A DNA stretch of 64,000 bases from Candidatus Micrarchaeota archaeon (GTDB lineage: Archaea; B1Sed10-29): assembly GCA_964579265.1 (NCBI GenBank), contig CAZOFO010000002.1:22856-86855 (forward strand). The letters run 5' to 3'. The notes under the pieces were generated by a model, which saw only the letters and a program-made list of their open reading frames with translations, ran no database searches and was not told where the DNA came from. This document shows, piece by piece, positions 4,043-47,973 of the stretch. Numbering within the stretch: position 1 is the first letter of the stretch; each line of letters opens with the position of its first letter. Both the position numbers and the translations under genes were made by a program.

Positions 4043-4092
4043 ACCTCAATCAAAACAATTAAACCCCAATCCTACATGTGTATACAGCAAAT

Positions 4093-4103
4093 GTAGTGCC
4101 TAA
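4093..4103 (+). promoter_or_regulatory. conserved 11-mer GTAGTGCCTAA downstream of a TATA-like box, about 90 nt upstream of the lysine-rich protein gene
   Basis: Context: tgtatacagcaaatGTAGTGCCTAAag. Confidence 0.45.
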
Positions 4104-4193: not shown

Positions 4194-5099
4194 GTGGTGA
4201 ACATGGCTTCGAAGAGAGTCAAAGACAAAAAAAGAAAATTGGCGGAGAAAGCAAGAGCAAAGAAATTACCCAGCAAAAAAGAACTTGATAAAAAAATGAA
4301 AAAGAGATTAAATGAAATCAAGAAAGAACAAGAAAAGATGAAGAAAAAATTCGCCAAAGAAAAAAAAGGAGGATTCAACTCATCTAAAGCTAGAAGGATG
4401 AGCTCAAAAAAAGAAGGAGTCAAAAAACCCAAGGAAATGAAAGACGAAGTAGTAAAAAAAAGAGCAGAGAAAAGGTTAAAAAAATTAAGGGAAAAATCTA
4501 AAGATAAGATAAAGAACTTGAATAAAAAAGAAGGAGTAATAGCTGTTCTGCCATCACCCTACAAAGGTGAGGAAATAGTTCTGAGAAAGAGGGAAGTAGC
4601 GGATCATGTTGAAATAGAAGCAATGAGGAAAAAAGGAAAGGAAGAGGAAAAAATAGGATTTATAGGAGCTAGAGAATCTAAAGAGATGGGAGAAAAAATA
4701 ATTGAAATACCAAGCATGAGAGTCGCAAGAGAATACAGAAAAGCAGGGATAGGAACAGCTCTGGACTCAGCACTCCAGCTGGAAATAGAGAAGAAGAAAG
4801 GAAAAGTTGATTATTCAATCCAACCTGCAGGGAGAGAAGGTAAAAAATTCTGGGAAAAAAGAAGAAAGAGAGGAAAAGAATTTGAAATAAAAAATAAAGA
4901 TAAAAAAATAGATACTAAGAGTTCATTAAAAGAAATCAAAAAAGCAAGGGATCCAATCAAAAAAGCCAGTAAACTGGTAGAAGAAGGTAAAATACAGAAG
5001 AGGAACTATAAAGAAGTATCAGAAAAATTAAAGAAAGAAGGAAATACAATAATTGCTAAAGAAATAGAAACAATAATCGAAAAGCACCCTGCTATCTAA
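4194..5099 (+). CDS. lysine-rich highly basic protein of unknown function, possibly nucleic-acid binding
   Basis: 301-aa ORF with an extremely K/R/E-rich N-terminal half. No recognisable catalytic motif. The coding strand is purine-rich like its neighbours. Confidence 0.4.
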   Translation: MVNMASKRVKDKKRKLAEKARAKKLPSKKELDKKMKKRLNEIKKEQEKMKKKFAKEKKGGFNSSKARRMSSKKEGVKKPKEMKDEVVKKRAEKRLKKLREKSKDKIKNLNKKEGVIAVLPSPYKGEEIVLRKREVADHVEIEAMRKKGKEEEKIGFIGARESKEMGEKIIEIPSMRVAREYRKAGIGTALDSALQLEIEKKKGKVDYSIQPAGREGKKFWEKRRKRGKEFEIKNKDKKIDTKSSLKEIKKARDPIKKASKLVEEGKIQKRNYKEVSEKLKKEGNTIIAKEIETIIEKHPAI

Positions 5100-5138
5100 T
5101 TTTGTAGATTTAAGAAAATACCATTCTATAATCTCCGT

Positions 5139-5149
5139 GTAGTGTCTAA
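5139..5149 (+). promoter_or_regulatory. one-mismatch variant (GTAGTGTCTAA) of the 11-mer downstream of a TATA-like box, about 40 nt upstream of egsA
   Basis: Context: ttctataatctccgtGTAGTGTCTAAaag. Confidence 0.4.
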
Positions 5150-5189: not shown

Positions 5190-6215
5190 ATGATTAAAAT
5201 GCAGAAACACATACAACTACCAAGCAACTTCTGGATAGGTAAAAACGCGTTGGAAAATCTTGAAAAATACAAGGAAAAAAACACATTAGTAGTAACCGGG
5301 CCAACAACACGGAAAGTAGCCGGAGATAAAGCCGCTGAAATACTTGAAACAGATACGCTAATAGTGGAAGAGCCCACCACCAAAGAAGCAGAGAGAGTGG
5401 AAAAAGAAATCAAAGAAAACGATAAAGACATAGCCATAGCAGTAGGAGGAGGGAAAGTAATAGACGTAACAAAGTCCGGGAGTTACAGAGCAGGTAAAAA
5501 ATTCATATCAATACCAACAACATTAGCCAACGATGGAATAGCAAGTCAAATGGCCTCATTACAAGAAAATGGAACTAGAGAATCAAAAAAAGCAGAAACT
5601 CCAGAAACAGTGATAGTGGACTCGGGAATAATAAAAAACTGCCCGTATGAACTTATAAGAGGAGGAGTCGGGGACACTTTATCAAACCTCACAGCAGTAA
5701 AAGACTGGAAACTCGGTCACATAGTAAAAAATGAATATTACGGAGACTATTCATCCTCACTAACCAAAATGGTGGGAGAATTAGTGAAACAGAGATCGAA
5801 ATCAATAAAAGAAAAAAATAAAGAAGGATTAAGCACATTAACAGAAGCACTAATATCATCAGGAGCAGCAATGGGAATAGCAGGAAGTTCAAGACCAGCT
5901 TCAGGATCAGCACATAAATTAAGCCATACTTTAGATAAAATAGCAGACAAACCAGCAATCCATGGAGAACAATGTGGAGTAGGAGCAATAGCAATGAAAT
6001 ACCTACAAGGAGGAAACTGGAGAGAAATAAAAAACGCTCTAAAAGATGCTGAAGCACCCACTAACGCAGAAGAACTAGGAATAGAAAAAGAAACGATGAT
6101 AGAAGCAATGGTGAAAGCGAAACAGATAAAACCAAAAAGATATACAATACTAGAACATATAGACATAGATAGAGAAATAGCAAAAAACACGCTTGAAGCA
6201 ACAGGAATAATATAA
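5190..6215 (+). CDS. egsA: glycerol-1-phosphate dehydrogenase [NAD(P)+]
   Basis: GGGKVIDVTK, IPTTLANDGIAS, GDTLSNLTAVKDWKLGH, GSAHKLSHTLD and HGEQCGVG are typical of archaeal G1PDH. Confidence 0.85.
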   Translation: MIKMQKHIQLPSNFWIGKNALENLEKYKEKNTLVVTGPTTRKVAGDKAAEILETDTLIVEEPTTKEAERVEKEIKENDKDIAIAVGGGKVIDVTKSGSYRAGKKFISIPTTLANDGIASQMASLQENGTRESKKAETPETVIVDSGIIKNCPYELIRGGVGDTLSNLTAVKDWKLGHIVKNEYYGDYSSSLTKMVGELVKQRSKSIKEKNKEGLSTLTEALISSGAAMGIAGSSRPASGSAHKLSHTLDKIADKPAIHGEQCGVGAIAMKYLQGGNWREIKNALKDAEAPTNAEELGIEKETMIEAMVKAKQIKPKRYTILEHIDIDREIAKNTLEATGII

Positions 6216-6227
6216 AAAGGTGATAAA

Positions 6228-6983
6228 ATGGAAAAAAATACGACAGAAAAACTCAAAAACATCATTGAAAAGGAAGGAGCATGCCACTTGACCCTGATAG
6301 ACCCTGACGAACAAAGCCCTAAAGAATCAGTTAAGATAGCAAAAGAAGCAGAAAAAGCAGGAACAGACGGAATAATGATAGGAGGATCAGGAGTAGACCA
6401 AGATGCAGTAAGAAAAACAAGTAAAAAAATAAAAGAATCTACAGACATCCCAAAAATAATATTCCCAGGAGACACATCCAGCATAAACAAACACGCTGAC
6501 GCAATATTTTTCATGTCTCTATTAAACTCAAGATCCAGATACTGGTTATCAATGGCCCAAGCATTTGGATCATTCAGCGTGAAAAAAGCAGGATTAGAGC
6601 CAATACCTCTTGGATACATAATACTTGAAACAAGCAATAAAACAAGTGTAGAATTCTACGGAGACGCAAACGTAATCCCAAGAGATAAACACAAAATAAC
6701 AGCAGCATTCGCACTAGCAGCACAGTACATGGGAATGGAATTCGCCTACCTGGAAGGAGGATCAGGAGCAGCAGAACCAGTACCTAACAAGATGATAGGA
6801 ATAACTAAAAAAACAGTTGATATCCCAATAATAGTAGGTGGAGGAATAAGAGATAAAAAAACAGCAGCAGAAAAAGTGAAAGCAGGAGCAGATGTGATAG
6901 TAACAGGAACAATAGCAGAAGAAGCTGAAAATGTAGAGAAAAAACTAAAAGAGATAGTAAAAGGAACAAAAGTAAATAAATAA
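6228..6983 (+). CDS. geranylgeranylglyceryl phosphate synthase (PcrB/GGGPS family)
   Basis: TDGIMIGGSG, IFPGDTS, AIFFMSLLNSR, AYLEGGSGA and IIVGGGIR match. The gene sits immediately downstream of egsA. Confidence 0.8.
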   Translation: MEKNTTEKLKNIIEKEGACHLTLIDPDEQSPKESVKIAKEAEKAGTDGIMIGGSGVDQDAVRKTSKKIKESTDIPKIIFPGDTSSINKHADAIFFMSLLNSRSRYWLSMAQAFGSFSVKKAGLEPIPLGYIILETSNKTSVEFYGDANVIPRDKHKITAAFALAAQYMGMEFAYLEGGSGAAEPVPNKMIGITKKTVDIPIIVGGGIRDKKTAAEKVKAGADVIVTGTIAEEAENVEKKLKEIVKGTKVNK

Positions 6984-10683: not shown

Positions 10684-12006
10684 TTAAAATAGTCCTCCTC
10701 CGCCTCGTTCCTGCATTTTTTTCATCATTTGCTGCATATTCCTGCCTTTTCCTCCCTTTAGTTTTTTGATCATTTTTTTACCTTTGTTGAAGTGTTCTAT
10801 TAATTCTTTTACTTCCGCTTCGGTTCTCCCTGATCCTTTTGCTATTCTTTTCTTTCTACTTTGGTTCATTAGGTCTGGATTTTTCATTTCTTCGTTTGTC
10901 ATTGAGTCCAGTATGTACTGGTATTTCTGCATTTTTTCTTCAGTTGCTTCTAGTTCTTCTTTTGGCATTTTTTTCTGTATTCCTAGTGCGCTGAATATTT
11001 TCCCTAGGGAACCCATTTTGTTAACTGCTTCTAGCTGCTTGTAGAAAGTTTGGAAGTCGTATTTTCCTTTCATTAGTTCCTGTGGATCTAGTTCTGTTTC
11101 TTGTGTTGCTCTTTGAACTCTTTTTAGTAATTCTCCGAGGTCTGGTTTTCCAAGGAGGTTTGCCACGAAGTCTTCAGCTTCGAATATTTTGAATTCGTGT
11201 ATTTTTTCTCCCGTTCCTATGAATGATACTGGGATTCCTGCTTGTGAACATGCTGTTAGTGCTCCTCCTGCTTTTGCTGAGGTGTCTGTTTTTGTTACTA
11301 TTACCCCTGTTAGACCTATTTCTTTGTTGAAGTCTTCTGCTATTCTTTCAGCTGTTTTTCCTGTATCTGCTGAGAGGACTAGGAAAGATTCTTCTGGGTT
11401 TAGTTTTTTCTCTATTTCATTTATTTCTTTTAGGAGTTCTTGATTGACATTGTCTCTTCCTGCGGAGTCAATTATTCTGATATCGTAGTTTTCAGTTTTA
11501 TCCAGGTATTTTTCAAGTACTTCTGTTCCTTTTTCAGCTTCCGGTTCTCCGTAGACATCTAGGTTGGATTCTTCTCCTAGTTGTTTCAGTTGTTCGTACG
11601 CTGCGGGCCTATCGGTATCGGTGGTTATGGCGCATACTTTCATTCCTCTTTTAGAGTAGAAATTAGCTAATTTAGCTACTGTAGTTGTTTTTCCTGATCC
11701 ATATAAACCTGTTAGTAATATATCATGGCCTTTCATCCTTGGTTTGTATTCTTCTCCACCAAGAGCTTCTTTTAGTTCATTATATATGAGTTTAGTTATG
11801 AATTCTTTTTTGGAGACACCTTTTGGAAATTCTTTTTCTTTTATTTCTTCTTTTATATTATCAGTTATTTGTTTTACTAATTCTACTGATACATCTGCCT
11901 GTATTAATATTCTCTGTATATCTTTGGTTATTTCTTCAACTAGTTCCTCGTCTATGACTCTTGATTGAGTTATTTTGTTCATTACGTTCTGCAGTTTGTC
12001 TAACAT
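10684..12006 (-). CDS. srp54: signal recognition particle protein SRP54
   Basis: N domain; G domain with GLYGSGKTTT and DSAGR; C-terminal Met-rich M domain ending in a GGG tail. Confidence 0.9.
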   Translation of the reverse strand: MLDKLQNVMNKITQSRVIDEELVEEITKDIQRILIQADVSVELVKQITDNIKEEIKEKEFPKGVSKKEFITKLIYNELKEALGGEEYKPRMKGHDILLTGLYGSGKTTTVAKLANFYSKRGMKVCAITTDTDRPAAYEQLKQLGEESNLDVYGEPEAEKGTEVLEKYLDKTENYDIRIIDSAGRDNVNQELLKEINEIEKKLNPEESFLVLSADTGKTAERIAEDFNKEIGLTGVIVTKTDTSAKAGGALTACSQAGIPVSFIGTGEKIHEFKIFEAEDFVANLLGKPDLGELLKRVQRATQETELDPQELMKGKYDFQTFYKQLEAVNKMGSLGKIFSALGIQKKMPKEELEATEEKMQKYQYILDSMTNEEMKNPDLMNQSRKKRIAKGSGRTEAEVKELIEHFNKGKKMIKKLKGGKGRNMQQMMKKMQERGGGGLF

Positions 12007-15759: not shown

Positions 15760-16068
15760 TTATTCTTCATTGTAACCGTAGGTTCTTTTTTCTTTACATT
15801 TAAAGCATTCGTATATCATTCTACTATTTTTAGAGTCTATTCGAACTTTAACTGTTTCTCCTGGAACCCAGTAGTTGTAGCAATCAGGGCAGAATCTTTT
15901 TTTGAAGCCTTTTGGAATAGTTTTGTTGTATTTTTCAGATATATTGTGGGCTAGTTCCATGTATCTTCTTGATCTTTCAGGATTATCTTCAAACTCTTTT
16001 TTAGCTTGTTCAAAGAGCCTTCTTATCCTTTTTTCAGCTAGTTTTTTTACCCATCTTGGTTTTGACAT
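15760..16068 (-). CDS. rnp4: RNase P protein component Rpp21/Rnp4
   Basis: RRYMELAHNIS followed by the zinc ribbon FCPDCYNYWVPGETVKVRI...YECFKC. Confidence 0.7.
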   Translation of the reverse strand: MSKPRWVKKLAEKRIRRLFEQAKKEFEDNPERSRRYMELAHNISEKYNKTIPKGFKKRFCPDCYNYWVPGETVKVRIDSKNSRMIYECFKCKEKRTYGYNEE

Positions 16069-16139: not shown

Positions 16140-16150
16140 TTAGGCACTAC
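16140..16150 (-). promoter_or_regulatory. copy of the conserved 11-mer GTAGTGCCTAA in minus orientation, about 70 nt upstream of the rnp4 start
   Basis: The plus strand reads ttaggcactac, i.e. acatGTAGTGCCTAAaat on the minus strand. An A/T-rich TATA-like stretch lies upstream on the minus strand. Confidence 0.5.
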
Positions 16151-16200
16151 ATGTATTTTTTGAGTTCATAAATCAAGAAAGAGTTTGAAGTATAATAAGG

Positions 16201-16997: not shown

Positions 16998-17008
16998 TGG
17001 TAAAAAAT

Positions 17009-17113
17009 GGGCCGGACGGGATTTGAACCCGCGGCTACCAGGTTTCTTCAGGGTTTATGTATTAATATAACCCTTTAAAAGCCTGGTGCTCTGCCAGACT
17101 GAGCTACCGGCCC
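17009..17113 (-). tRNA. tRNA-Lys (UUU) with an intron of about 32 nt at the canonical 37/38 position
   Basis: Minus strand: GGGCCGG-TA-GCTC-AGTCTGGCA-GAGC-A-CCAGG-CTTTTA[intron AAGGGTTATATTAATACATAAACCCTGAAGA]A-CCTGG-TAGCC-GCGGG-TTCAAAT-CCCGT-CCGGCCC-A. The exact intron ends are ambiguous within the A runs. Confidence 0.75.
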
Positions 17114-17293
17114 TTTTAATATCCGGATCATAGGATAAAGGGCAATACTATAACTATATTGCCACTTTAAAACATATGTCGAATCTTGTTATCCTCCTCA
17201 TTAAATCAGTTTTATCCTCTCTTTGTTTTTAATCATTCGTTTTATTAATTCCTTATTCCCAGAGACTCTTGAAATATAATATCTGGCTTGAAT

Positions 17294-17304
17294 GTAGTGC
17301 CTAA
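17294..17304 (+). promoter_or_regulatory. conserved 11-mer GTAGTGCCTAA downstream of a TATA-like box, upstream of aTrm56
   Basis: aaatataatatctggcttgaatGTAGTGCCTAAttttt lies 20-65 nt before the candidate start codons. Confidence 0.5.
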
Positions 17305-22708: not shown

Positions 22709-22772
22709 GTGTTATTTCTGGAAATCAGAGAAATAAAGTAATTTTTCCAAATTTTTAAGTTAATTCTAGTTT

Positions 22773-22795
22773 GTAGTGCCTAATGTAGTGCCTAA
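22773..22795 (+). promoter_or_regulatory. two tandem copies of GTAGTGCCTAA separated by 1 nt, downstream of an A/T-rich box
   Basis: atttttaagttaattctagtttGTAGTGCCTAAtGTAGTGCCTAAatc sits in the gap between the surface-protein gene and tRNA-Met. Confidence 0.5.
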
Positions 22796-23015: not shown

Positions 23016-23090
23016 AGCGGGATAGGGCAGCCTGGAGTGCCCGACAGGCTCATAACCTGTAGGTCGGAGGTTCAAATCCTCTTCCCGCTA
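23016..23090 (+). tRNA. tRNA-Met (CAT) with an A1:U72 terminal pair
   Basis: AGCGGGA-TA-GGGC-AGCCTGGAGT-GCCC-G-ACAGG-CTCATAA-CCTGT-AGGTC-GGAGG-TTCAAAT-CCTCT-TCCCGCT-A. The anticodon stem has only two G:C pairs at 29-31, so it is not a canonical initiator. Confidence 0.85.
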
Positions 23091-24808: not shown

Positions 24809-24820
24809 ATATTTATACTT

Positions 24821-24831
24821 GTAGTGCCTAA
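24821..24831 (+). promoter_or_regulatory. conserved 11-mer GTAGTGCCTAA, 6 nt before the ATG of the 59-aa ORF
   Basis: TATA box atatttatac lies 2 nt upstream. The layout is compatible with a leaderless or near-leaderless transcript. Confidence 0.5.
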
Positions 24832-24837
24832 GAATTT

Positions 24838-25017
24838 ATGATAGAAATGGTTTATGTGAGAAAGAAAAAAATAAATGGAAACGAATATTGGTACGCTTCG
24901 AAGACTAAAAGGAAAGATGGGAAGGTTAAACAGGAAACAGTTGCTTATATAGGCCCATGTAGAAAAATAAACTATGGAGAAGCTAAAAAAATAGCTAGGG
25001 AAAAATCGGAAGACTAA
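24838..25017 (+). CDS. 59-aa ORF resembling the N-terminal fragment of an SSV-type partitioned integrase (int(N))
   Basis: MIEMVYVRKKKINGNEYWYASKTKRKDGKVKQETVAYIGPCRKINYGEAKKIAREKSED. The aromatic-x-Y ... [DN]G[KE]VK[QE]..Y[IV]GP pattern resembles SSV1 Int residues about 20-45, from memory. The ORF falls below the 60-aa cutoff of the ORF track. Confidence 0.3.
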   Translation: MIEMVYVRKKKINGNEYWYASKTKRKDGKVKQETVAYIGPCRKINYGEAKKIAREKSED

Positions 25018-25158: not shown

Positions 25159-25743
25159 TCATTTACCCTCAAAATTTAATAATTCTTCTTTATCCATATT
25201 AAGTCGATAGAAGACTTTTCTACCTACTCTTTTCTTAGAAAGGTAATTAGCTTTAAATAAGGTATTTAATAGTTCTGAACATCTATTACGGCTTAGTCCG
25301 AGTTCTTCTGATAATTCTGAAGAATCTAATTCTCCTTTTTCTCCAACTATCTCAAGTATCTGTCGAAGTCTAGGCGACAGATTCGACACTTTTCGAGACT
25401 TTGTCGAGACCTGTCGCGACTCATCTCGACCTTCTAGATCTTCATTTTTACTTATTTCAACCATCCAATCTAGCATATCTTCGTATAATTCTTTTATTTC
25501 TAATAGTTCATCTATTTTTTTATTCATTTCCCAGAGTAATTCTCTTTCTTGTATGGTTTTCTCCTTCTTACTATCTTCTTTTAGTTTTTGAACTGTTAAA
25601 GCTCCTTCTTCTGATTTTTCATAGTTTTTATTAGTAGAATTAGCTTCTTTATCTTCTATTAGCTTCTTTTTTTCTTTTTTAAGATCTTTATCTTCTTTTT
25701 CGTTTTTGAATAGAGATTTGAGAAAAGGGAACAGACCCCTCAC
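25159..25743 (-). CDS. winged-helix transcriptional regulator of the island, GTG start
   Basis: C-terminal wHTH LSPRLRQILEIVGEKGELDSSELSEELGLSRNRCSELLNTLFKANYLSKKRVGRKVFYRLN. The GTG start lies inside a GTGAGGGGTC sequence that matches the family-2 core. Confidence 0.5.
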   Translation of the reverse strand: MRGLFPFLKSLFKNEKEDKDLKKEKKKLIEDKEANSTNKNYEKSEEGALTVQKLKEDSKKEKTIQERELLWEMNKKIDELLEIKELYEDMLDWMVEISKNEDLEGRDESRQVSTKSRKVSNLSPRLRQILEIVGEKGELDSSELSEELGLSRNRCSELLNTLFKANYLSKKRVGRKVFYRLNMDKEELLNFEGK

Positions 25744-25833
25744 CCCCTGCGTCGCTCTGCGGCACTATCTATGATTATTATCTCACACATACTTAAATAC
25801 TTTTGGTTGTTTTTCTCTTTCATATACTCCAAT

Positions 25834-25844
25834 GTAGTGCCTAA
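25834..25844 (+). promoter_or_regulatory. GTAGTGCCTAA copy 1 of 4 in the 650-bp non-coding stretch
   Basis: Context: ttcatatactccaatGTAGTGCCTAAaaa. Confidence 0.45.
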
Positions 25845-25893
25845 AAATTTCTTTTAATTGGATTTTCTCTATTCTAGTATAATTTACTCACGT

Positions 25894-25904
25894 GTAGTGC
25901 CTAA
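25894..25904 (+). promoter_or_regulatory. GTAGTGCCTAA copy 2 of 4 (extended unit ctcacgtGTAGTGCCTAAaa)
   Basis: Context: agtataatttactcacgtGTAGTGCCTAAaa. Confidence 0.45.
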
Positions 25905-25997
25905 AATTATTTCTTTTTAGCTCCTCACACACCCCTAACCTTCCTATTTTCATCATTTCACTGTATTTGCCTTGGATCCATCCAAAATTCCTCACGT

Positions 25998-26008
25998 GTA
26001 GTGCCTAA
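25998..26008 (+). promoter_or_regulatory. GTAGTGCCTAA copy 3 of 4 (same 20-nt extended unit as copy 2)
   Basis: Context: ccaaaattcctcacgtGTAGTGCCTAAaa. Confidence 0.45.
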
Positions 26009-26099
26009 AACCGCTGTTTTTTAGCATTTTTGAAGGTATGTAGGGGGATCTTTAGCTTTACTTCTTGTTTTTTCCTGGTTTTTGTTTTTCTTCTTACAT

Positions 26100-26110
26100 G
26101 TAGTGCCTAA
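26100..26110 (+). promoter_or_regulatory. GTAGTGCCTAA copy 4 of 4
   Basis: Context: cttcttacatGTAGTGCCTAAaat, followed by a T-rich low-complexity tract up to 26370. Confidence 0.45.
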
Positions 26111-26370: not shown

Positions 26371-26697
26371 GTGATACCTATGTTAACCCCCATTTTCTTT
26401 AAGGAAAAACCAGTGCGAGCCCTTGCCTCTTTGGCCAATGATGACAAAGCTTGGTACGCTTCCTTATTAGCAAAGGAAATAGACTGTACTCGCCCACATA
26501 TGAATAATATCTTAGATAAATTCCATAAACATAATTTAATAGAGACTGAAGAAGAAGGAAGGATAAAAAGGATATCTCTAACATCTCAAGGCGAGGATTT
26601 AGCAATAGAATTCCAAAATTTGCTTAGAAGAATGGAAAGAATTGATGAAAAATCTCAAATGGAGCCAGAGAGCGAAGGGGAATCAGATGAAGAATAA
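26371..26697 (+). CDS. winged-helix DNA-binding regulator
   Basis: WYASLLAKEIDCTRPHMNNILDKFHKHNLIETEEEGRIKRISLTSQGEDLA is a wHTH (MarR/PadR-like) signature. Acidic C-terminal tail. Confidence 0.5.
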   Translation: MIPMLTPIFFKEKPVRALASLANDDKAWYASLLAKEIDCTRPHMNNILDKFHKHNLIETEEEGRIKRISLTSQGEDLAIEFQNLLRRMERIDEKSQMEPESEGESDEE

Positions 26698-27391
26698 TGA
26701 AAATCTTAAAACCCGATACGCTACTTTGGATGATGTGCCTAAGTTACTGGACCACCCCGGAGAATTTGAATTCTCTACAAAATATTTGCATGAAGCGATT
26801 AGATCCAGTAGACAAGGTATAATTATTTTAGAGGAAAATGAAGAAATAAAAGCATTTGTACATGTTAGAAGAGGAGCAGAAGGAATTAAAATAGATAGTT
26901 ACGGGTTTAGAAATAAAGAAGAAATAATTAAGCTACTTTCAGAAGTTGAATCTCTGACTATTGATCTTCCAATATACATATATGTTGATAAAAAGGATAA
27001 AGATATTTCTTTATTCAAAAAAGCAGGGTATAAAGAAGAATTAGAAACAGAAGACGGACAAGTAAAGCTGGTTAAACCTTGGTTGAAGATCCACGAAGAC
27101 CGTAAAAAAGAACTGATATTTAAAGAAAAAGCTGAAGAAGCTAGAAAACAGCATGAGAAGATTTATCCTATATCCAAAGGCAGAATAAGTAATCTTGAAT
27201 CTAATCTAATAATTTTAGAGAAAATAATAGAAGAAATGAGAGAAGAAGAGAAGGAAGAATCTTCTGATACGTCTAAGGAATCTAAAATGGAAAAGAAAGA
27301 GGATTTAGTCTCTTGTCCTATATGTGGAGATGAATTCGAAACTGAAAGAGGTATGAAAATCCATAAGACGAAAATGCACGGTTCTTCTTGA
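26687..27391 (+). CDS. GNAT-like domain protein with a C-terminal C2H2-type zinc finger
   Basis: Start chosen at the ATG at 26687, which follows a GGGGA RBS; the ORF track gives 26642. The GNAT-like core is LEENEEIKAFVHVRRGAEGIKIDSYGF. The C-terminus CPICGDEFETERGMKIHKTKMH fits C-x2-C-x12-H-x4-H. Confidence 0.45.
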   Translation: MKNNENLKTRYATLDDVPKLLDHPGEFEFSTKYLHEAIRSSRQGIIILEENEEIKAFVHVRRGAEGIKIDSYGFRNKEEIIKLLSEVESLTIDLPIYIYVDKKDKDISLFKKAGYKEELETEDGQVKLVKPWLKIHEDRKKELIFKEKAEEARKQHEKIYPISKGRISNLESNLIILEKIIEEMREEEKEESSDTSKESKMEKKEDLVSCPICGDEFETERGMKIHKTKMHGSS

Positions 27392-28046: not shown

Positions 28047-28826
28047 TTATAGATGTGTTAGTTTATTTCCATAATACCATAGTAGGTAGATTAGTAGACC
28101 TACTAAGAAGAATATGATGAATAGTGGAACTAAGAACCCCATTATAGGTACGCCTGTTGCTCTTTTCACCGGATCTGTTTCAGGGTGTTCTTCCGGATAA
28201 GGTTCTTCTAAAAGTTCTTCTTCCTCTTCTTCAGTTAGGTTTAATGCTTCTTCTTCCATTGCTTGTTCTGTTTGCATATGTTCAGGAGGAGTTATTTCTC
28301 CTCTCATTGTTGTTGCTGCTATGAAGATTGCTGTTATTAAGAATCCGAGTATTATGATGATTGAGATTGGTTTCAGTACTTTTGGTTTTTTGACTTTTCT
28401 TTCTTTTTGTAGTTCTCTTTCTCTTTCTTCTTCTATCTGGGTTTTTGAGTCTTTTGGTCTTATATCCTCTACTTCGCTTGCAGGAATTTGTACTTTAACT
28501 GATCCTTCGTATCCACAGTCTTTGCAGTAGAATTTATTTGGTGCTCCTAGGCCTATTATTGTTTTTACTGATCTAGAATCCATTGAAGCGTATTCTAACC
28601 TTGGGCTACCACAACTAGGGCAGATTTGAACTTTTTTACCTTCTTTCTTTTCTTGCTCTTTAGTCTTTTTTTCTTTTTCCTTCTTCTGCTTTTCTTCTTG
28701 TTTTTTAGCCTTTTTTTCCTTTTCTTTCTCTTCTTTTTCATCTTCTTTATCGTGTACTCTTGCTTTGTGGATCTTAACGCCTCTTTCATTCTTTAATTCT
28801 TTCCCACATATGTCACATTTGGCCAT
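28047..28826 (-). CDS. membrane-anchored protein with an N-terminal C2H2-type zinc finger and a second zinc ribbon
   Basis: N-terminus MAKCDICGKELKNERGVKIHKARVH is a C2H2 pattern. A K/E-rich linker follows, then ICPSCGSP...YCKDCGYEG. The C-terminus has two TM helices (ISIIIILGFLITAIFIAA; IMGFLVPLFIIFFLVGLLIYLLW). Confidence 0.5.
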   Translation of the reverse strand: MAKCDICGKELKNERGVKIHKARVHDKEDEKEEKEKEKKAKKQEEKQKKEKEKKTKEQEKKEGKKVQICPSCGSPRLEYASMDSRSVKTIIGLGAPNKFYCKDCGYEGSVKVQIPASEVEDIRPKDSKTQIEEERERELQKERKVKKPKVLKPISIIIILGFLITAIFIAATTMRGEITPPEHMQTEQAMEEEALNLTEEEEEELLEEPYPEEHPETDPVKRATGVPIMGFLVPLFIIFFLVGLLIYLLWYYGNKLTHL

Positions 28827-29216
28827 GCTTAACTCCTTACTTATGATAGTGGAGCGTATAATAAAAGCTTATCCCTACTTTTTCTTGTTTTACCCTTGCT
28901 TCCCGTCCATTGATAATATGTATTTTATAAAATGTATTTTAATATAAGGCCAAAAACACGATAATTATAATTTAAATTATAAAATAAAGTTTAAAGAAAA
29001 TCGATGTTATTCTCTAATATGTATAATGGATTTTATAAAAAATAGTTTCGGCGGATCAGGCCGGAGAAAATGAAATCTCTACAAAGTAATTGCAAAGAGG
29101 GTTTTCCACCTGATTTACCCTTGTTAGAATTTGCGGTTGAAATTCTAGGGTCTCACGTTTCGAAAATTAGTCATGAGTCTTCTGGAGCTGGTGTGAAAAG
29201 GGTGAAAACCGGGTTT

Positions 29217-29227
29217 TTAGGCACTAC
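29217..29227 (-). promoter_or_regulatory. GTAGTGCCTAA copy in minus orientation that supplies the last codons and the TAA stop of the GNAT-CDP-alcohol phosphatidyltransferase gene
   Basis: The minus strand reads ...gaagaaTGTAGTGCCTAA, encoding E-E-C-S-A-stop. Confidence 0.5.
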
Positions 29228-30347
29228 ATTCTTCTTTTTCTTCTCCTTCTTCCAGTTGAACCGGTTCTATAGGGAACTTGATGTGGCTTACCATTAATAG
29301 GCTTATCAAAAATGTGATTAATATCACTGGGTAGAATCCGGGAGAAAGGAAGTAAATTACTGGATAAAGTACTCCTGTAGCTGTCCCTGGGAGACCTATA
29401 AAGTGCTTTCCATTCGGTTCTCTTGTTTGGAATCTAGCTAATCTAAGCACTTCAGCTATAAGTATGGATAATGCTGAGGCGTGAAGTAAAACAGTTTGAA
29501 CCAAATTCTGAGGATTTAACCACGTCAATAGTAATATAGCAGGTGCTGCTCCGAATGAAACCAGGTCTGCTATATCTATTCTTTTCCCAAATTCTGTAGG
29601 TTTTGAGATCCTCCTCGCTACTTCTCCATCGAGCACGTCCATCGTTACTGCCAGTATCAGGAAGGATGATCCCGCTGTAAATCTTCCTTGAATGAATAGA
29701 AAGATTGAATAGATTCCGAAAACAGAGTTTAGGAGTGATATTATGTCTTTTCCCATCATGAAGTTGGTTATTTTGTTCTTTTTAGACATCCTTGGCATTC
29801 TTTCTTTCTCTATCCCTATCGATTCTAGGTATTTTTCTAGATCGTAAAATTCTTTTAGAGGGTGCGTGCTTCCTTTTTCAACCCCTAGTCTTTTCCCTAG
29901 TATCATAACAGTGTTCTCTGGTAATGGTTTTGGACTTATCTTTTCCAGGACTTTCCTCACTCTTGTTTTTTTGAATGTATTCTCTCCTAATTCTTCGATT
30001 ATAGTATGATATCCTCTTTTCTTGTGTAAATTTAATGAAATTTCATTTTCTCTGTGTATCCCTATCAGACAGATCTTTGCTCCTTTTTCTTCTAATCTCT
30101 CCTCCATTTTTTCTTCTAGATATTCTCCTGCTCCTTGTCCTCTCCAATTTTCCTTGATAAATAATGCTCCCATGCTCCCTATCTTCTTGAAGAATGTTTG
30201 GATGTACCCGCATCCGATTGTATATCCTTCGTGTTTCAGTAGAAAGTACTCTCTTTTTTCTGAATTTTTTCCTGGGCTCGTGATGTAAGGGTGATTGGAG
30301 CACATTCCTTCAATTTTCTCTACTTCTTCTGTTCTTTCGACTTTCAT
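29217..30347 (-). CDS. fusion protein: N-terminal GNAT acetyltransferase plus C-terminal CDP-alcohol phosphatidyltransferase
   Basis: The N-terminus has the GNAT motif-A region IKENWRGQGAGEYLEE. The C-terminal half is polytopic and carries the CDP-OH transferase signature DGEVARRISKPTEFGKRIDIADLV (D-G-x2-A-R...G-x3-D-x3-D). Confidence 0.65.
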   Translation of the reverse strand: MKVERTEEVEKIEGMCSNHPYITSPGKNSEKREYFLLKHEGYTIGCGYIQTFFKKIGSMGALFIKENWRGQGAGEYLEEKMEERLEEKGAKICLIGIHRENEISLNLHKKRGYHTIIEELGENTFKKTRVRKVLEKISPKPLPENTVMILGKRLGVEKGSTHPLKEFYDLEKYLESIGIEKERMPRMSKKNKITNFMMGKDIISLLNSVFGIYSIFLFIQGRFTAGSSFLILAVTMDVLDGEVARRISKPTEFGKRIDIADLVSFGAAPAILLLTWLNPQNLVQTVLLHASALSILIAEVLRLARFQTREPNGKHFIGLPGTATGVLYPVIYFLSPGFYPVILITFLISLLMVSHIKFPIEPVQLEEGEEKEECSA

Positions 30348-30399: not shown

Positions 30400-30957
30400 T
30401 TAGACTTTGAATTCTTCTAGATCCTTGTCGGAGAGTATTTTTTCCCAGTTCTTCTTATATTGACTATATTTTTCTTCGAATTTCTTATTAGAGGTTTTCT
30501 CTATCTCAAGTTCTTCCAAAGCACTTTCTAGGTTTTTCTGAATTTTTTCATGGTCTTCTTCCTCTTCACACATTTTTTCTATCTCTATAATTTTCCCGTA
30601 GCCAGGGGTTTGGTCTATGCATACTGTGAGGCCCTTCCAGTTGAATTTATGTCTTTTTCTATACCATTTTATCTCTACTTCGTACCCTAGGCTCTTCAAA
30701 AGTTTCTCTAGTTCTTTGAAGTCTTCTTTATTGAATTCTACTTCTATTTCTTCCCTGTTATCCTCGTGTATTTTCCCTTCTTTTAACCAGAGTTTTGAAA
30801 ATTTTTTATTCTTCTGTATTCTAAGGTCTTTTTCCCCTGTAAAATAATATGTTACTTGTTTGTCTTCTTTAATCTTCTCAGCTTTTTCATTCATTTTATA
30901 GAGGAGTTCCTCGTACTCTTTGTCCGATATGAAGCTCCTTGTCTCCACTTCTTTCAT
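30400..30957 (-). CDS. CYTH-domain protein (triphosphate tunnel metalloenzyme / class IV adenylyl cyclase-like)
   Basis: N-terminal EVETRSFI fits the E-x-E-x-K/R pattern. Alternating charged beta-strand pattern and length are typical of CYTH. Confidence 0.55.
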   Translation of the reverse strand: MKEVETRSFISDKEYEELLYKMNEKAEKIKEDKQVTYYFTGEKDLRIQKNKKFSKLWLKEGKIHEDNREEIEVEFNKEDFKELEKLLKSLGYEVEIKWYRKRHKFNWKGLTVCIDQTPGYGKIIEIEKMCEEEEDHEKIQKNLESALEELEIEKTSNKKFEEKYSQYKKNWEKILSDKDLEEFKV

Positions 30958-31043: not shown

Positions 31044-32405
31044 GTGATTTATATGAATGAATCTGAAGTTAAACTGATAGCTACATCTAAGGGAACTGAA
31101 AATGATGTCCTAGGTCCGGAGGAATTGACTGCTTATGGGGCATACGGATGTTTTGAACAGGGGGCTTCCTATGAGGTCTTCAAAGAACACTACAAAGGGA
31201 ATACTGAAGAAGAGTTTAAAGAGGAGGTAAAAGAGGTTCTAAAACAAAGTGCGGGAAGAGGACACGGAGCAGTAGCTGATCAGAACGCTTTTACTTTTTC
31301 TATAAAAAACTTACCAAGAGCAGCTACTCTTCAGCTTTGCCTACCTGAATATTTGATGCATCTGCAGCAATCGATGAGAAGAGCAACTGCAGAGAGAGGA
31401 TACGTCCTTCCGGACGAGATCAAGAATTCAGATATGTATGAAGAAGTAAAAGAAGTGCTAGACAATGCATTTGAAACTTACATGGAGCTAGTTGAAAACG
31501 AAATACCGAAAGAAGATGCTAGATTCCTCCTACCTCTCTATACTAGGACCAATATACAGACAACTGGAAATGCCAGAGAACTAATGCATCTGCACCACAT
31601 GACAAAGAAAGAACCCGTTCCAACACCAGTAAAAGAAATAATAGACGAGATGATAGAACAAGCAAGAGAAAAAGCACCTAACACTTTCAAGGACTGGGGT
31701 CACAACTACGAAAGACTCGCCTGGTACCCTTCAGCTCAGTTATACGCTGAAGAGAATGCGACTCTGAACAAGATAATAGAGGAATACGATTATCCTGAAG
31801 AGACCACTTATGTTGAAAAAGAATTATCTGAAGAAGCAATTGAAAAGGCTGTGGAGCAGAGAAACGAAGCTGAACTATCCAACCTGAAACACATACACAA
31901 CGGAAGCAAGGTAGAAGGATTCCTAGCACCGATGTCGATAGCCTGCTATCATCAATCCACCAGACAGAGAACATGGAACCACGCTGTAGAGTCCTTCTAC
32001 GACGCTGCAGAAAGAGGAAACATGGTGGTGCCACCTACAGTGAAGAATTCAGAGTACACAGAGAAATTCAAGGAACAACACAGAGAAATGATCCGACTCT
32101 ACAAAAAACTAATCAGCAAAGGGATATCCAAAAAAGAAGCAATAGGAGTAATACCTCATTCTGTCGAAATGTACGACTTTATACACGTCAATGGATGGAA
32201 CTCCATACACTCCATAGGAAAAAGAACCTGTACAAAAGCCCAATGGGAAATAAGAAGTATAGCAAACAACATAGCAGAAAAGATAAGAGAAAAAAACCCG
32301 GCACTAGGAAAATACACCTATCCACAAGGAGTAGTGTACGGAGAGTGTCCGGAAGCAGATCCTTGTGATCTCTGCGAAAAAATAAGAAAACAAAGAGAAG
32401 AATAG
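31044..32405 (+). CDS. ThyX-family (flavin-dependent thymidylate synthase-like) protein with two tandem ThyX-like domains
   Basis: The first half has GRGHGAVADQNAFTFSIKNLPRAATLQL and ARFLLPLYTRTNIQTTGNARELMHLHHM. The second half has GVIPHSVEMYDFIHVNGWNSIHSIGKRTCTKAQWEIRSIANNI. The canonical RHR...S motif is not intact in either half. Confidence 0.55.
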   Translation: MIYMNESEVKLIATSKGTENDVLGPEELTAYGAYGCFEQGASYEVFKEHYKGNTEEEFKEEVKEVLKQSAGRGHGAVADQNAFTFSIKNLPRAATLQLCLPEYLMHLQQSMRRATAERGYVLPDEIKNSDMYEEVKEVLDNAFETYMELVENEIPKEDARFLLPLYTRTNIQTTGNARELMHLHHMTKKEPVPTPVKEIIDEMIEQAREKAPNTFKDWGHNYERLAWYPSAQLYAEENATLNKIIEEYDYPEETTYVEKELSEEAIEKAVEQRNEAELSNLKHIHNGSKVEGFLAPMSIACYHQSTRQRTWNHAVESFYDAAERGNMVVPPTVKNSEYTEKFKEQHREMIRLYKKLISKGISKKEAIGVIPHSVEMYDFIHVNGWNSIHSIGKRTCTKAQWEIRSIANNIAEKIREKNPALGKYTYPQGVVYGECPEADPCDLCEKIRKQREE

Positions 32406-46710: not shown

Positions 46711-47973
46711 ATGACTGAAAAAACAGATAATAAAAATAAAACTCAAACAGCAATAGATTTCAAAGACGAATACGACGTCATAATAGTAGGAGCAGGACCA
46801 GGAGGATCAATAGCAGCCAGAGACTGCGCAGAAAAAGGACTAGACACGCTAGTTATAGAAAAAAGACCTGAACTAGGAACACCAGTAAGATGCGGAGAAG
46901 GACTAGGAGAAGTATGGATGGAAATGGCAGGCATAGAATACGATCCAGACTGGTGCAAAAGAAAAACAGAAGGAGCAGTAGTTTATCCACCAAACGAAAA
47001 ATCATTAAAAGTAGATCCTGAAAATAAAGGCTATATAATAGAAAGAAAGATATTCGAGAAAAAATTAGCCGAAGAAGCCGGAAGAAAAGGCGCAGATTAC
47101 CTGCTTAAAACAAAAGCAGAGCACGTGATACAAGAAGAAAATGAAGAAGGAGAAAAACAAGTCAAAGGAGTAGTAGTAAAAACCGATGAAGGAGAAACAA
47201 AAGAATACAGATCAAAAATAGTCATAGCAGCTGACGGAGTAGAATCAAAAATAGCCAAATCAGCAGGACTCAACACAACAAATCCATTAAAAGACATGGA
47301 TGCAGGATACGAATACGAAATGACAAACCTAAATTTCCCAGAAGAAGAATCAAGATACATACACATATGGTTAGGAAACGAAATAGCCCCAGGAGGATAC
47401 GTCTGGGCATTCTTCAAAGACGAAGACGTAGCAAACATAGGAATAGGAGTAAACCCAACTGAAGCAGAAAAAACAGCAAAAGAATACCTCGACGAATGGA
47501 TAAGAAACCATCCAGAATACTTCGAAGAAGCAGCAATCACTGAGAAAAAAGGAGGAGGAATACCACTAGGAGAACCTCTAGAAAAACCATACACAAACGG
47601 ATTAATGGCAATAGGAGACGCAGCACACATGGTAAACCCAATACACGGAGGAGGAATGGGACAAGCAATGGAAGCAGCAAGAATAGCAGCAGAAACAGCA
47701 GAAAAATCAATAAAAAATGAAGACTACTCAAAAGAAATGCTATCCGAATTTGCAGACAGATGGTGGGAAAAAAGAGGAAACCAACTAAAAGACATACAAA
47801 AAGTCAGAAACTTCGCAGAATCACTAACAGATAAAGACCTAAATAAACTAAGAGAAATAATAGACCAAGAAGGACTATTGAACCTAGTGGACGCAAGCAA
47901 CCTAAAGAAATTCTTAAAAGTATTCAAAGGAAGCCCAAAGATAGCTATGAAAGCAGCAAAACACCTAAAATAA
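46711..47973 (+). CDS. geranylgeranyl reductase (digeranylgeranylglycerophospholipid reductase), FAD-dependent
   Basis: YDVIIVGAGPGGSIAA is a GxGxxG FAD site. RCGEGLG, IAADG and GDAAHMVNP..GGG match the GGR family. Confidence 0.85.
   Translation: MTEKTDNKNKTQTAIDFKDEYDVIIVGAGPGGSIAARDCAEKGLDTLVIEKRPELGTPVRCGEGLGEVWMEMAGIEYDPDWCKRKTEGAVVYPPNEKSLKVDPENKGYIIERKIFEKKLAEEAGRKGADYLLKTKAEHVIQEENEEGEKQVKGVVVKTDEGETKEYRSKIVIAADGVESKIAKSAGLNTTNPLKDMDAGYEYEMTNLNFPEEESRYIHIWLGNEIAPGGYVWAFFKDEDVANIGIGVNPTEAEKTAKEYLDEWIRNHPEYFEEAAITEKKGGGIPLGEPLEKPYTNGLMAIGDAAHMVNPIHGGGMGQAMEAARIAAETAEKSIKNEDYSKEMLSEFADRWWEKRGNQLKDIQKVRNFAESLTDKDLNKLREIIDQEGLLNLVDASNLKKFLKVFKGSPKIAMKAAKHLK

Follow-up and report, generated by a model that had tools for sequence, protein, structure and literature searches.

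A GNAT domain and a CDP-alcohol phosphatidyltransferase in one gene

The minus strand of a 64,000-nucleotide (nt) stretch of archaeal DNA (contig CAZOFO010000002.1, Candidatus Micrarchaeota archaeon; the whole stretch is called the window below) carries, at positions 29217-30347, a gene that joins an N-terminal GNAT acetyltransferase domain, through a linker, to a C-terminal CDP-alcohol phosphatidyltransferase (Table 1). The two halves, recognised in an earlier note on this DNA, both pass their Pfam profiles: Acetyltransf_1 (PF00583) matches amino acids (aa) 30-113 with 39.2 bits against a cutoff of 20.7 (E 9.5e-10), and CDP-OH_P_transf (PF01066) matches aa 201-343 with 56.1 bits against a cutoff of 22 (E 7.4e-15). 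The single gene and the identities of its domains are real, and the gene is the product of a fusion between genes that once stood side by side. Such an architecture is very rare, and it has biological meaning, since the genes joined in it form a conserved pair linked to a variant clade of CDP-archaeol transferases of the serine type.

Exactly the same protein (P0396) is present in public data on six contigs from several sources, the longest of 88.7 kb. An independently assembled ortholog of 365 aa (P0001), 55% identical over 362 aa, is fused likewise, and its locus (L001) is syntenic with the window in the ThyX, SHMT and zinc-ribbon genes. These observations show that the fusion is not an assembly artefact. 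Between the two proteins both domains are about equally conserved (55% and 60% identity), and the linker less so (40%). The linker preserves the ancestral start of the downstream gene, M184-P-R...ITNF, at codon 29796-29798: the junction reads M184-PRMSKKNKITNF in the window, whereas in the split pair of a related locus (L005) the GNAT tail ends in ...KKDL*, followed by a 9-nt spacer and then by MPEVSEEARITNF. Hence the GNAT tail, its stop codon and the spacer were lost at the fusion. In the NCBI record P0001 is named only 'GNAT family N-acetyltransferase', a label under which the lipid enzyme half is hidden; a GNAT-only annotation of an ortholog can thus conceal a lipid enzyme.

The last five codons and the stop had been read as exactly GAAGAATGTAGTGCCTAA, which is what the sequence holds, and the stop codon does fall inside a copy of a repeated element. 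It had accordingly been asked whether this element is conserved at the end of orthologous genes or is a recent insertion that truncated the gene. It occupies the same position in L001 (cGTAGTGCCTAAA, 10887-10898), just past the end of the gene, 10 nt beyond the P0001 stop. The last ~11 residues of the window protein (...LEEGEEKEECSA) have no counterpart in the relatives, all of which end right after the sixth helix (...KFPVKSKN in P0001, ...KFPIKPKRLK in the stand-alone transferase P0121). The window protein is therefore longer and not truncated, because its ORF (open reading frame) reads on to a TAA inside a pre-existing intergenic element, and the idea of a truncating insertion is not supported. 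The ORF lost its old stop and now continues for ~11 more codons, to the TAA within the element; as the motif holds stops in two of the three frames, an ORF deprived of its stop will usually end there. A frameshift or assembly artefact, or a decaying pseudogene cut off at the 3' end by a recent repeat insertion, could draw on this position of the stop and on the linker, which is poorly conserved and modelled with low confidence. Such an explanation is already contradicted, and scarcely credible, in view of the identical protein on six contigs from several sources, the independently assembled fused ortholog, the equal conservation of both domains and a 3' end that was extended.

The acetyltransferase half

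A model of the window protein was built with AlphaFold2 from a 32-sequence alignment. Its mean predicted local distance difference test score (pLDDT) is 85; most of aa 1-120 and 200-360 exceed 90, the linker has low values, and aa 180-188 as well as the C-terminal tail fall below 50. Foldseek searches of the PDB found no solved chain that covers both domains. The N-terminal domain alone matches, with probability 1.0, the small GNATs PA4794, HP0935, RimI, Ard1 and phosphinothricin acetyltransferases, at 9-18% identity and template-modelling (TM) scores of 0.65-0.77 normalised to the target.

The GNAT motif A quoted in the earlier note, RGQGAGEYLEE, is present as given at aa 69-79 (nt 30111-30143), with RGQGAG at aa 69-74, and the pattern R-x-x-G-x-[GA] is kept in all eight members of the GNAT family that were compared. 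Outside the coenzyme A (CoA) site the same eight members conserve H-x-x-[IV]-[NT]-x-P and [IL]SPxPxP, which in the window protein take the form HPYITSP (aa 19-25) and ISPKPLP (aa 137-143). The domain therefore has its fold and motif A in common with the small stand-alone GNATs but differs from them in having motifs of its own and in occurring only with one type of transferase, described below. It reaches the cutoff of no curated GNAT family in NCBIfam; the best match, RimI (TIGR01575), scores 27.1 bits against a cutoff of 86.4. With its acetyl-CoA-binding motif intact, this half, predicted to be cytoplasmic, is most likely a competent acetyltransferase.

The transferase half and its variant signature

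The segment of aa 196-360 finds its best match, in sequence and in structure, in the M. jannaschii enzyme MjPSS and the B. subtilis-type PssA, the archaetidylserine/phosphatidylserine synthases of subclass II. MjPSS (7b1k/7pow) is the closest solved relative, with 33-34% identity and a root-mean-square deviation of 2.1 Å (HMMER alignment and Foldseek search of the PDB). The top NCBIfam matches of the C-terminal half are archaetidylserine synthase (NF038087, 116.6 bits) and then pssA (TIGR00473, 105.1 bits); the alignment to the pssA profile runs over its full length, while that to NF038087 is confined to positions 2-170 of 216. The model contains six long helices (199-219, 223-247, 259-276, 282-308, 321-334 and 338-353), mostly with pLDDT above 90, which together with the PF01066 match bears out the polytopic transferase assigned earlier to this part. 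Six helices are also found in many canonical short relatives of ~165-180 aa.

CDP-alcohol transferases are defined by the motif DxxDGxxAR(x8)GxxxDxxxD (PMC8633023). The signature D-G-x2-A-R...G-x3-D-x3-D attributed to the window protein has to be amended in its last spacing, which is x2 (GKRIDIAD); spelled out, it is D237-VL-D240-G-EV-A-R-x8-G254-KRI-D258-IA-D261. The canonical spacing D-x2-D-G-x2-A-R-x8-G-x3-D-x3-D is thus absent, yet all eight signature residues are present. In the HMMER alignment with MjPSS the change appears as a one-residue deletion, GAELDSISD in MjPSS and GKRID-IAD in the window. Among the retrieved proteins the D-x2-D spacing was found in 12 of 260 instances of the motif, and all 12 belong to the closest relatives of the window C-terminal half.

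The position of the deletion is of consequence for the active site. In MjPSS the substrate serine is held by Asp62, Ser63, Asp66 and Phe105, Mg2+ is liganded by Asp41, Asp62, Ser65 and Asp66, and mutation of any of the four aspartates lowers or abolishes activity (PMC8633023). The window transferase keeps the four aspartates and the phenylalanine (LRLARF), whereas the equivalent of Ser63 is deleted and Ser65 is replaced by alanine. Since both serines make substrate-serine or Mg2+ contacts in MjPSS, the acceptor pocket appears to be altered. In summary of the comparison, D1, D2, G, A-R, G, D3 and the LRLARF helix are common to both enzymes, while the window transferase is distinguished by six helices instead of eight, the D-x2-D spacing, the missing Ser63 and Ser65 equivalents and the GNAT partner.

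A rare fusion of a conserved gene pair

The domain pair had been singled out as unusual, and database searches uphold this. In a word-indexed search of 5.8 billion clusters P0001 was the one further protein found to carry both domains; when 1.84 billion 50%-identity representatives were searched exhaustively with HMMER, P0001 was again the sole other full-length fused match, and two scans of the GTDB species genomes gave only the L001 contig. The number of fused proteins is a lower bound, because P0396 itself belongs to a 90% cluster represented by a 35-aa fragment (P0397), and was for that reason missed by the homolog search. A homolog search with the GNAT half only returned no matches, P0001 included, which reflects a limitation of the word index and is not evidence. 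Matches of ~350-375 aa with a C-terminal transferase were considered as further GNAT fusions, and were identified by Pfam as tandem double CDP-OH transferases, with one LPG_synthase_TM fusion. The tandem proteins, of ~350-390 aa with a short PssA-like C-terminal half, are P0132, P0140, P0141, P0150, P0152 and P0153, and P0167, P0176, P0178, P0245 and P0254 are of the same build; in P0265 an MprF-type LPG_synthase_TM domain is fused to a CDP-OH transferase.

The two halves also exist as separate proteins encoded side by side. The stand-alone transferase P0121 (183 aa) is 57% identical to window aa 184-365, and the gene adjoining its own encodes a stand-alone GNAT, P0122 (195 aa), 48% identical to window aa 1-180. 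In L004-L008 the GNAT gene is followed 9 nt later by the transferase gene; in L009 the order is the same, with 52 nt between them. The order is reversed in L010/L011 (a 610-kb contig) and L097, where 4 nt separate the transferase gene from the GNAT gene and a divergent gene for CarS (CDP-archaeol synthase) adjoins. Four further archaeal lineages thus keep the GNAT and the short transferase as co-directional neighbours, in either order and twice beside CarS, which argues that the fusion is no accident.

A family-specific hidden Markov model made from the eight GNAT members was run on every ORF of 97 fetched loci. It matches D-x2-D loci only, and none of the 80 metagenome loci with a canonical D-x3-D PssA. 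Leaving aside L096, a locus too short to judge, the GNAT is fused or adjacent in six of the eight informative D-x2-D lineages. A conserved gene pair in some archaea and its fusion in others make a functional link of the Rosetta-stone type between acetyltransferase and head-group transferase likely, and such a link would fit the modified amino head group suggested in the earlier note.

Organism and lipid pathway

Archaeal marker genes in the window include Pus10, SRP54, aCPSF1/FttA, aTrm56, TFE and Rpr2. The SRP54 protein has a 100% identical counterpart in public data; its identity is 79-84% with those of a few metagenome-assembled genomes, among them the carrier of P0001, and ~54% with entries from Micrarchaeota and Diapherotrites; these identities point to a DPANN-type lineage. 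Many DPANN genomes are said to be devoid of core archaeol lipid synthesis. The organism of the window appears to make its own archaeol core, since genes for glycerol-1-phosphate (G1P) dehydrogenase, geranylgeranylglyceryl phosphate (GGGP) synthase and geranylgeranyl reductase are encoded in it (Table 1). Genes for CarS or the phosphatidylserine (PS) decarboxylase Psd were not found within the 64 kb.

The genes around other D-x2-D transferases are informative as to substrate. In one locus (L094) the transferase lies beside genes for PS decarboxylase, CarS and a second CDP-OH transferase, and in another (L095) it follows CarS directly and is near a geranylgeranyl reductase gene. From the CarS and Psd neighbours we infer that the clade uses CDP-archaeol and that, in L094, it yields a free-amine product, archaetidylserine. 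The activity predicted for the transferase half is most likely, on this basis, archaetidylserine synthesis (CDP-archaeol + L-serine → archaetidylserine + cytidine monophosphate). It would be the first step of the PssA-Psd (Ass-Asd) route to archaetidylethanolamine, to which the L094 enzyme with its adjoining Psd may belong; the window system differs from that route in that the partner is a GNAT rather than a decarboxylase in six of the eight informative lineages. The exchange of partner suggests an alternative fate of the amino group, and GNAT and Psd may be read as alternative partners acting on one amine.

Proposed function

We tentatively propose that the protein is a bifunctional head-group enzyme, in which serine-type transfer from CDP-archaeol is combined with N-acetylation of the amine. 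In this scheme, the transferase would work at the cytoplasmic membrane face and move archaetidyl-phosphate from CDP-archaeol to L-serine or to an amino alcohol much like it. The linker, of ~40 residues, would hold the cytoplasmic GNAT beside the transferase active site. There the GNAT would N-acetylate the amine of the head group, whether this is still the free alcohol awaiting transfer or already part of the lipid, and the product would be an N-acetylated aminophospholipid. Both the substrates, CDP-archaeol and serine, and the N-acetylation of the head group are deduced from homology and gene neighbourhood; the acetylated head group as such is plausible.

The layout has a precedent. In the IPCT/DIPPS proteins (Archaeoglobus AF0263 type) a soluble cytoplasmic enzyme likewise stands N-terminal to a six-helix CDP-alcohol transferase, and one polypeptide thereby carries two steps of a single head-group pathway (PMC8633023). 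The window protein departs from them in that its soluble domain is a GNAT and not a nucleotidyltransferase (no cytidylyltransferase domain was found in the Pfam and NCBIfam scans) and its transferase is of the serine type, not of the inositol-phosphate type. A conceptual analogue is MprF and the aminoacyl-phosphatidylglycerol synthases, in which a GNAT fold and a membrane domain act on a phospholipid head group (mentioned in PMC12419801). MprF, however, uses aminoacyl-tRNA as donor and combines a C-terminal double GNAT with a flippase-type LPG_synthase_TM domain, whereas the window protein has a single N-terminal GNAT with a canonical acetyl-CoA motif and a CDP-alcohol transferase; neither LPG_synthase_TM nor the double GNAT (DUF2156) was found in it by the Pfam scan.

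A number of observations weigh against the bifunctional enzyme. The transferase half stays under the NCBIfam cutoffs (116.6 against 240 bits for NF038087, 94.9 against 200 for TIGR04217, 105.1 against 107 for TIGR00473) and stops after helix 6, where MjPSS has eight helices; with the Ser63 and Ser65 equivalents also gone, serine may not be the acceptor. The D-x2-D transferases of L094 and L095 have no adjacent GNAT, so the transferase works without one. On the GNAT side, the position of the usual general-acid tyrosine varies across the family (H/N/W/Y/A), and most of the nearest solved GNATs acetylate proteins or small molecules and have no link to lipids. The predicted TM score of the model is 0.61, which makes its domain orientation unreliable, and literature searches turned up neither a GNAT/CDP-alcohol-transferase pairing in archaea nor an N-acetylated archaetidylserine.

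Three other assignments share part of this evidence. The GNAT might act first and make soluble N-acetylserine or another N-acetyl amino alcohol, which an enlarged D-x2-D pocket would take in place of free serine, so that the enzyme would not be a strict archaetidylserine synthase. The one-residue deletion that removes the Ser63 and Ser65 equivalents from the acceptor/Mg2+ site, the confinement of the D-x2-D variant to this clade, the scores below the archaetidylserine-synthase cutoffs and a soluble, substrate-preparing N-terminal domain placed as in IPCT/DIPPS would all agree with it. Pyruvoyl-type PS decarboxylases need a free amine. The D-x2-D transferase that adjoins such a decarboxylase gene in L094, and the absence of an adjacent GNAT in both L094 and L095, speak against this order of events, which is unlikely.

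The GNAT could also be a membrane-tethered protein acetyltransferase of the RimI/Ard1/PA4794/HP0935 kind, with the transferase itself or membrane-proximal proteins as its target, in which case the lipid would be ordinary archaetidylserine. In favour of this, HP0935, PA4794, RimI and Ard1 are among its nearest structures and RimI is its best, though weak, NCBIfam match. GNAT fold neighbours are poor predictors of substrate, however, and the RimI score is far below its cutoff. Moreover, a family found only fused to or beside a single transferase clade, in either order, fits a shared pathway better, and a protein target is quite unlikely. Variation at the tyrosine position combined with a conserved acetyl-CoA motif would suit, in turn, a non-catalytic acetyl-CoA sensor that matches head-group synthesis to the supply of acetyl-CoA, the precursor of the isoprenoid chains. 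However, many active GNATs are without a general-acid tyrosine, the motifs that the family conserves away from the CoA site point to a conserved acceptor site, and no precedent was found for such a sensor, which seems very unlikely.

Archaeal head-group biosynthesis is known in outline only, and it is debated which lipids DPANN-type archaea can make. Here, fusion and operon structure couple a dedicated acetyltransferase to CDP-archaeol transferases of the serine type that form a distinct clade and have a changed catalytic signature. Should N-acetylation prove true, the enzyme would make a new class of lipid, and a +42 Da aminolipid could serve as a biomarker of uncultured archaea; a working enzyme would moreover be shown to tolerate a change in the 'invariant' D-x3-D of the CDP-alcohol transferases. 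Should it prove false, what is left is a rare but ordinary gene fusion.

Table 1. Features of the fusion gene, of the dispersed 12-mer and of the lipid pathway, in window coordinates
Feature	Position	Strand	Evidence or remark
Fusion gene (GNAT + linker + CDP-alcohol phosphatidyltransferase)	29217..30347	-	Uninterrupted ORF, 376 aa plus stop
GNAT domain, aa 1-155	29883..30347	-	Pfam PF00583 match, model, Foldseek
Linker, aa 156-195	29763..29882	-	Low pLDDT, <50 for aa 180-188
Minimal six-helix CDP-alcohol phosphatidyltransferase, archaetidylserine-synthase type, aa 196-360	29268..29762	-	Pfam, NCBIfam, MjPSS match
Variant signature D237-x2-D240-G-x2-A-R-x8-G254-x3-D258-x2-D261 (DVLDGEVARRISKPTEFGKRIDIAD)	29565..29639	-	Regular expression on translation
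C-terminal tail IEPVQLEEGEEKEECSA, aa 360-376	29220..29270	-	pLDDT <50
12-mer TGTAGTGCCTAA, last three sense codons and stop of the fusion gene	29217..29228	-	Only copy overlapping coding sequence
Non-coding gap, 390 nt, from the fusion gene to the zinc-ribbon/transmembrane gene (28047-28826)	28827..29216	-	L001 alignment
12-mer copy	4092..4103	+	90 nt upstream of ORF 4194-5099
12-mer copy, one mismatch	5138-5149		40 nt upstream of G1P dehydrogenase gene
12-mer copy	16140..16151	-	71 nt upstream of Rpr2 (RNase P subunit) gene 15760-16068(-)
12-mer copy	17293..17304	+	~67 nt upstream of conserved aTrm56 start
Two tandem 12-mer copies	22772..22795	+	220 nt upstream of tRNA-Met (23016-23090)
12-mer copy	24820..24831	+	6 nt upstream of small ORF 24838-25017 (59 aa)
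Four direct 12-mer copies (25833, 25893, 25997, 26099)	25833..26110	+	Spacings 60, 104, 102 nt
G1P dehydrogenase gene	5190-6215		
GGGP synthase gene	6228-6983		
Geranylgeranyl reductase gene	46711-47973		

A dispersed 12-mer in the intergenic regions

The element at the end of the fusion gene is one copy of a repeat that had been described as a dispersed 11-mer. It is indeed dispersed, with 11 exact copies of TGTAGTGCCTAA in the window against 0.15 expected, a number reached in none of 100 shuffles; its length, however, is better given as that of a 12-13-mer, (T/C)GTAGTGCCTAA(A). Every copy falls between 4 and 29 kb, nine of them on the plus and two on the minus strand, and the part from 30 to 64 kb has none. 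Ten of the 11 lie wholly within the non-coding 10.5% of the window, the exception being the copy at the fusion-gene end. At every locus of the motif a co-directional gene or tRNA follows, 6 to 390 nt downstream; the downstream units are ORF 4194, G1P dehydrogenase (by a one-mismatch copy), Rpr2, aTrm56, tRNA-Met, the 59-aa ORF, a winged-helix gene and the zinc-ribbon gene 28047-28826. The position is conserved as well: in a relative (L098) the motif stands ~63 nt before the start of aTrm56, and in both genomes a shared TTATTTTAA box is found ~26 nt further downstream. The 12-mer is thus a conserved, oriented, non-coding intergenic cis-element, separate from the enzyme.

Several roles were considered for the 12-mer and set aside. 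A terminator would not account for the copies at 22772 and 17293, which have no co-directional upstream gene, while all copies have a downstream one. The distance to the downstream start, 6-390 nt, makes a fixed core-promoter element unlikely. For origin recognition box (ORB) repeats, the clustered copies are all in one orientation, and there is no adjacent Orc1/Cdc6 and no clear skew switch. The end of a miniature inverted-repeat transposable element, or another insertion scar, is opposed by the absence of extended flanking similarity and of inverted partners.

The best reading of the 12-mer is that a sequence-specific factor would bind it, and that it would act as an operator or upstream site of the downstream unit; an action at the RNA level is conceivable. 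The four direct copies between the divergent winged-helix regulator genes 25159-25743(-) and 26371-26697(+) look like an operator array, and the flanking winged-helix proteins are candidate binders. A broader reading, less likely than not, is that the GNAT and D-x2-D transferase module makes an undescribed class of membrane lipid, an N-acetylated or N-acylated archaetidylserine or a related archaetidyl amino alcohol, which would be specific to a group of DPANN-type archaea and an alternative to the decarboxylase route; separately, the 12-mer could mark a new regulon or operator system of a winged-helix factor.

The gap beyond the fusion gene

In L001 the motif heads a gap of ~400 nt with conserved blocks, as long as that of the window, and the two gaps have a mean column identity of 78%. 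The window gap is made of a first part of ~190 nt, with the conserved blocks, and a last part of ~200 nt that is AT-rich and promoter-like. Neither a known RNA family (Rfam) nor a conserved small ORF was found in the gap; its RNA fold has z = -2.4, and the two-sequence consensus is weak.

A stretch of 42 nt in the gap, at 29053-29094 (+), is 81% identical to 26749-26790 (+), which lies within ORF 26642-27391. The gap copy has a stop in the reading frame, and the gap of L001 shares the conserved block TCATTTTCTCCGGC. The same ORF and the zinc-ribbon gene have C2H2 fingers that are paralogous at the DNA level, C-terminal in ORF 26642-27391 (27320-27380 +) and N-terminal in ORF 28047-28826 (28751-28811 -), with 61 nt that are 70% complementary.

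Neighbouring loci

ORF 4194-5099 (301 aa) gives a weak GNAT-like match and is flanked by copies of the 12-mer, an exact one at 4092 and a one-mismatch copy at 5138. In the syntenic L098 (16781-16963) KaiC and G1P dehydrogenase have neither this ORF nor the motif between them, and the ORF is possibly an inserted or deleted cassette.

A third tRNA of 106 nt, at 17008-17113 (-) beside tRNA-Phe, scores 61 bits in Rfam and is not reported by ARAGORN; it is probably an intron-containing archaeal tRNA. Immediately upstream of the fusion gene, at 52 nt and on the same strand, lies a CYTH/CyaB-like gene (30400-30957, -), which matches TIGR00318 with 49.9 bits against a cutoff of 57.95. It is missing from the same position in L001, and another CYTH gene is found ~6 kb from the split pair in L005-L007. 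Further upstream, the ThyX gene at 31044-32405 (+) is of double length, with 453 aa and two Thy1 stretches; that of L001 (8317-9669) has 450 aa. The double length suggests a fused-dimer flavin-dependent thymidylate synthase.

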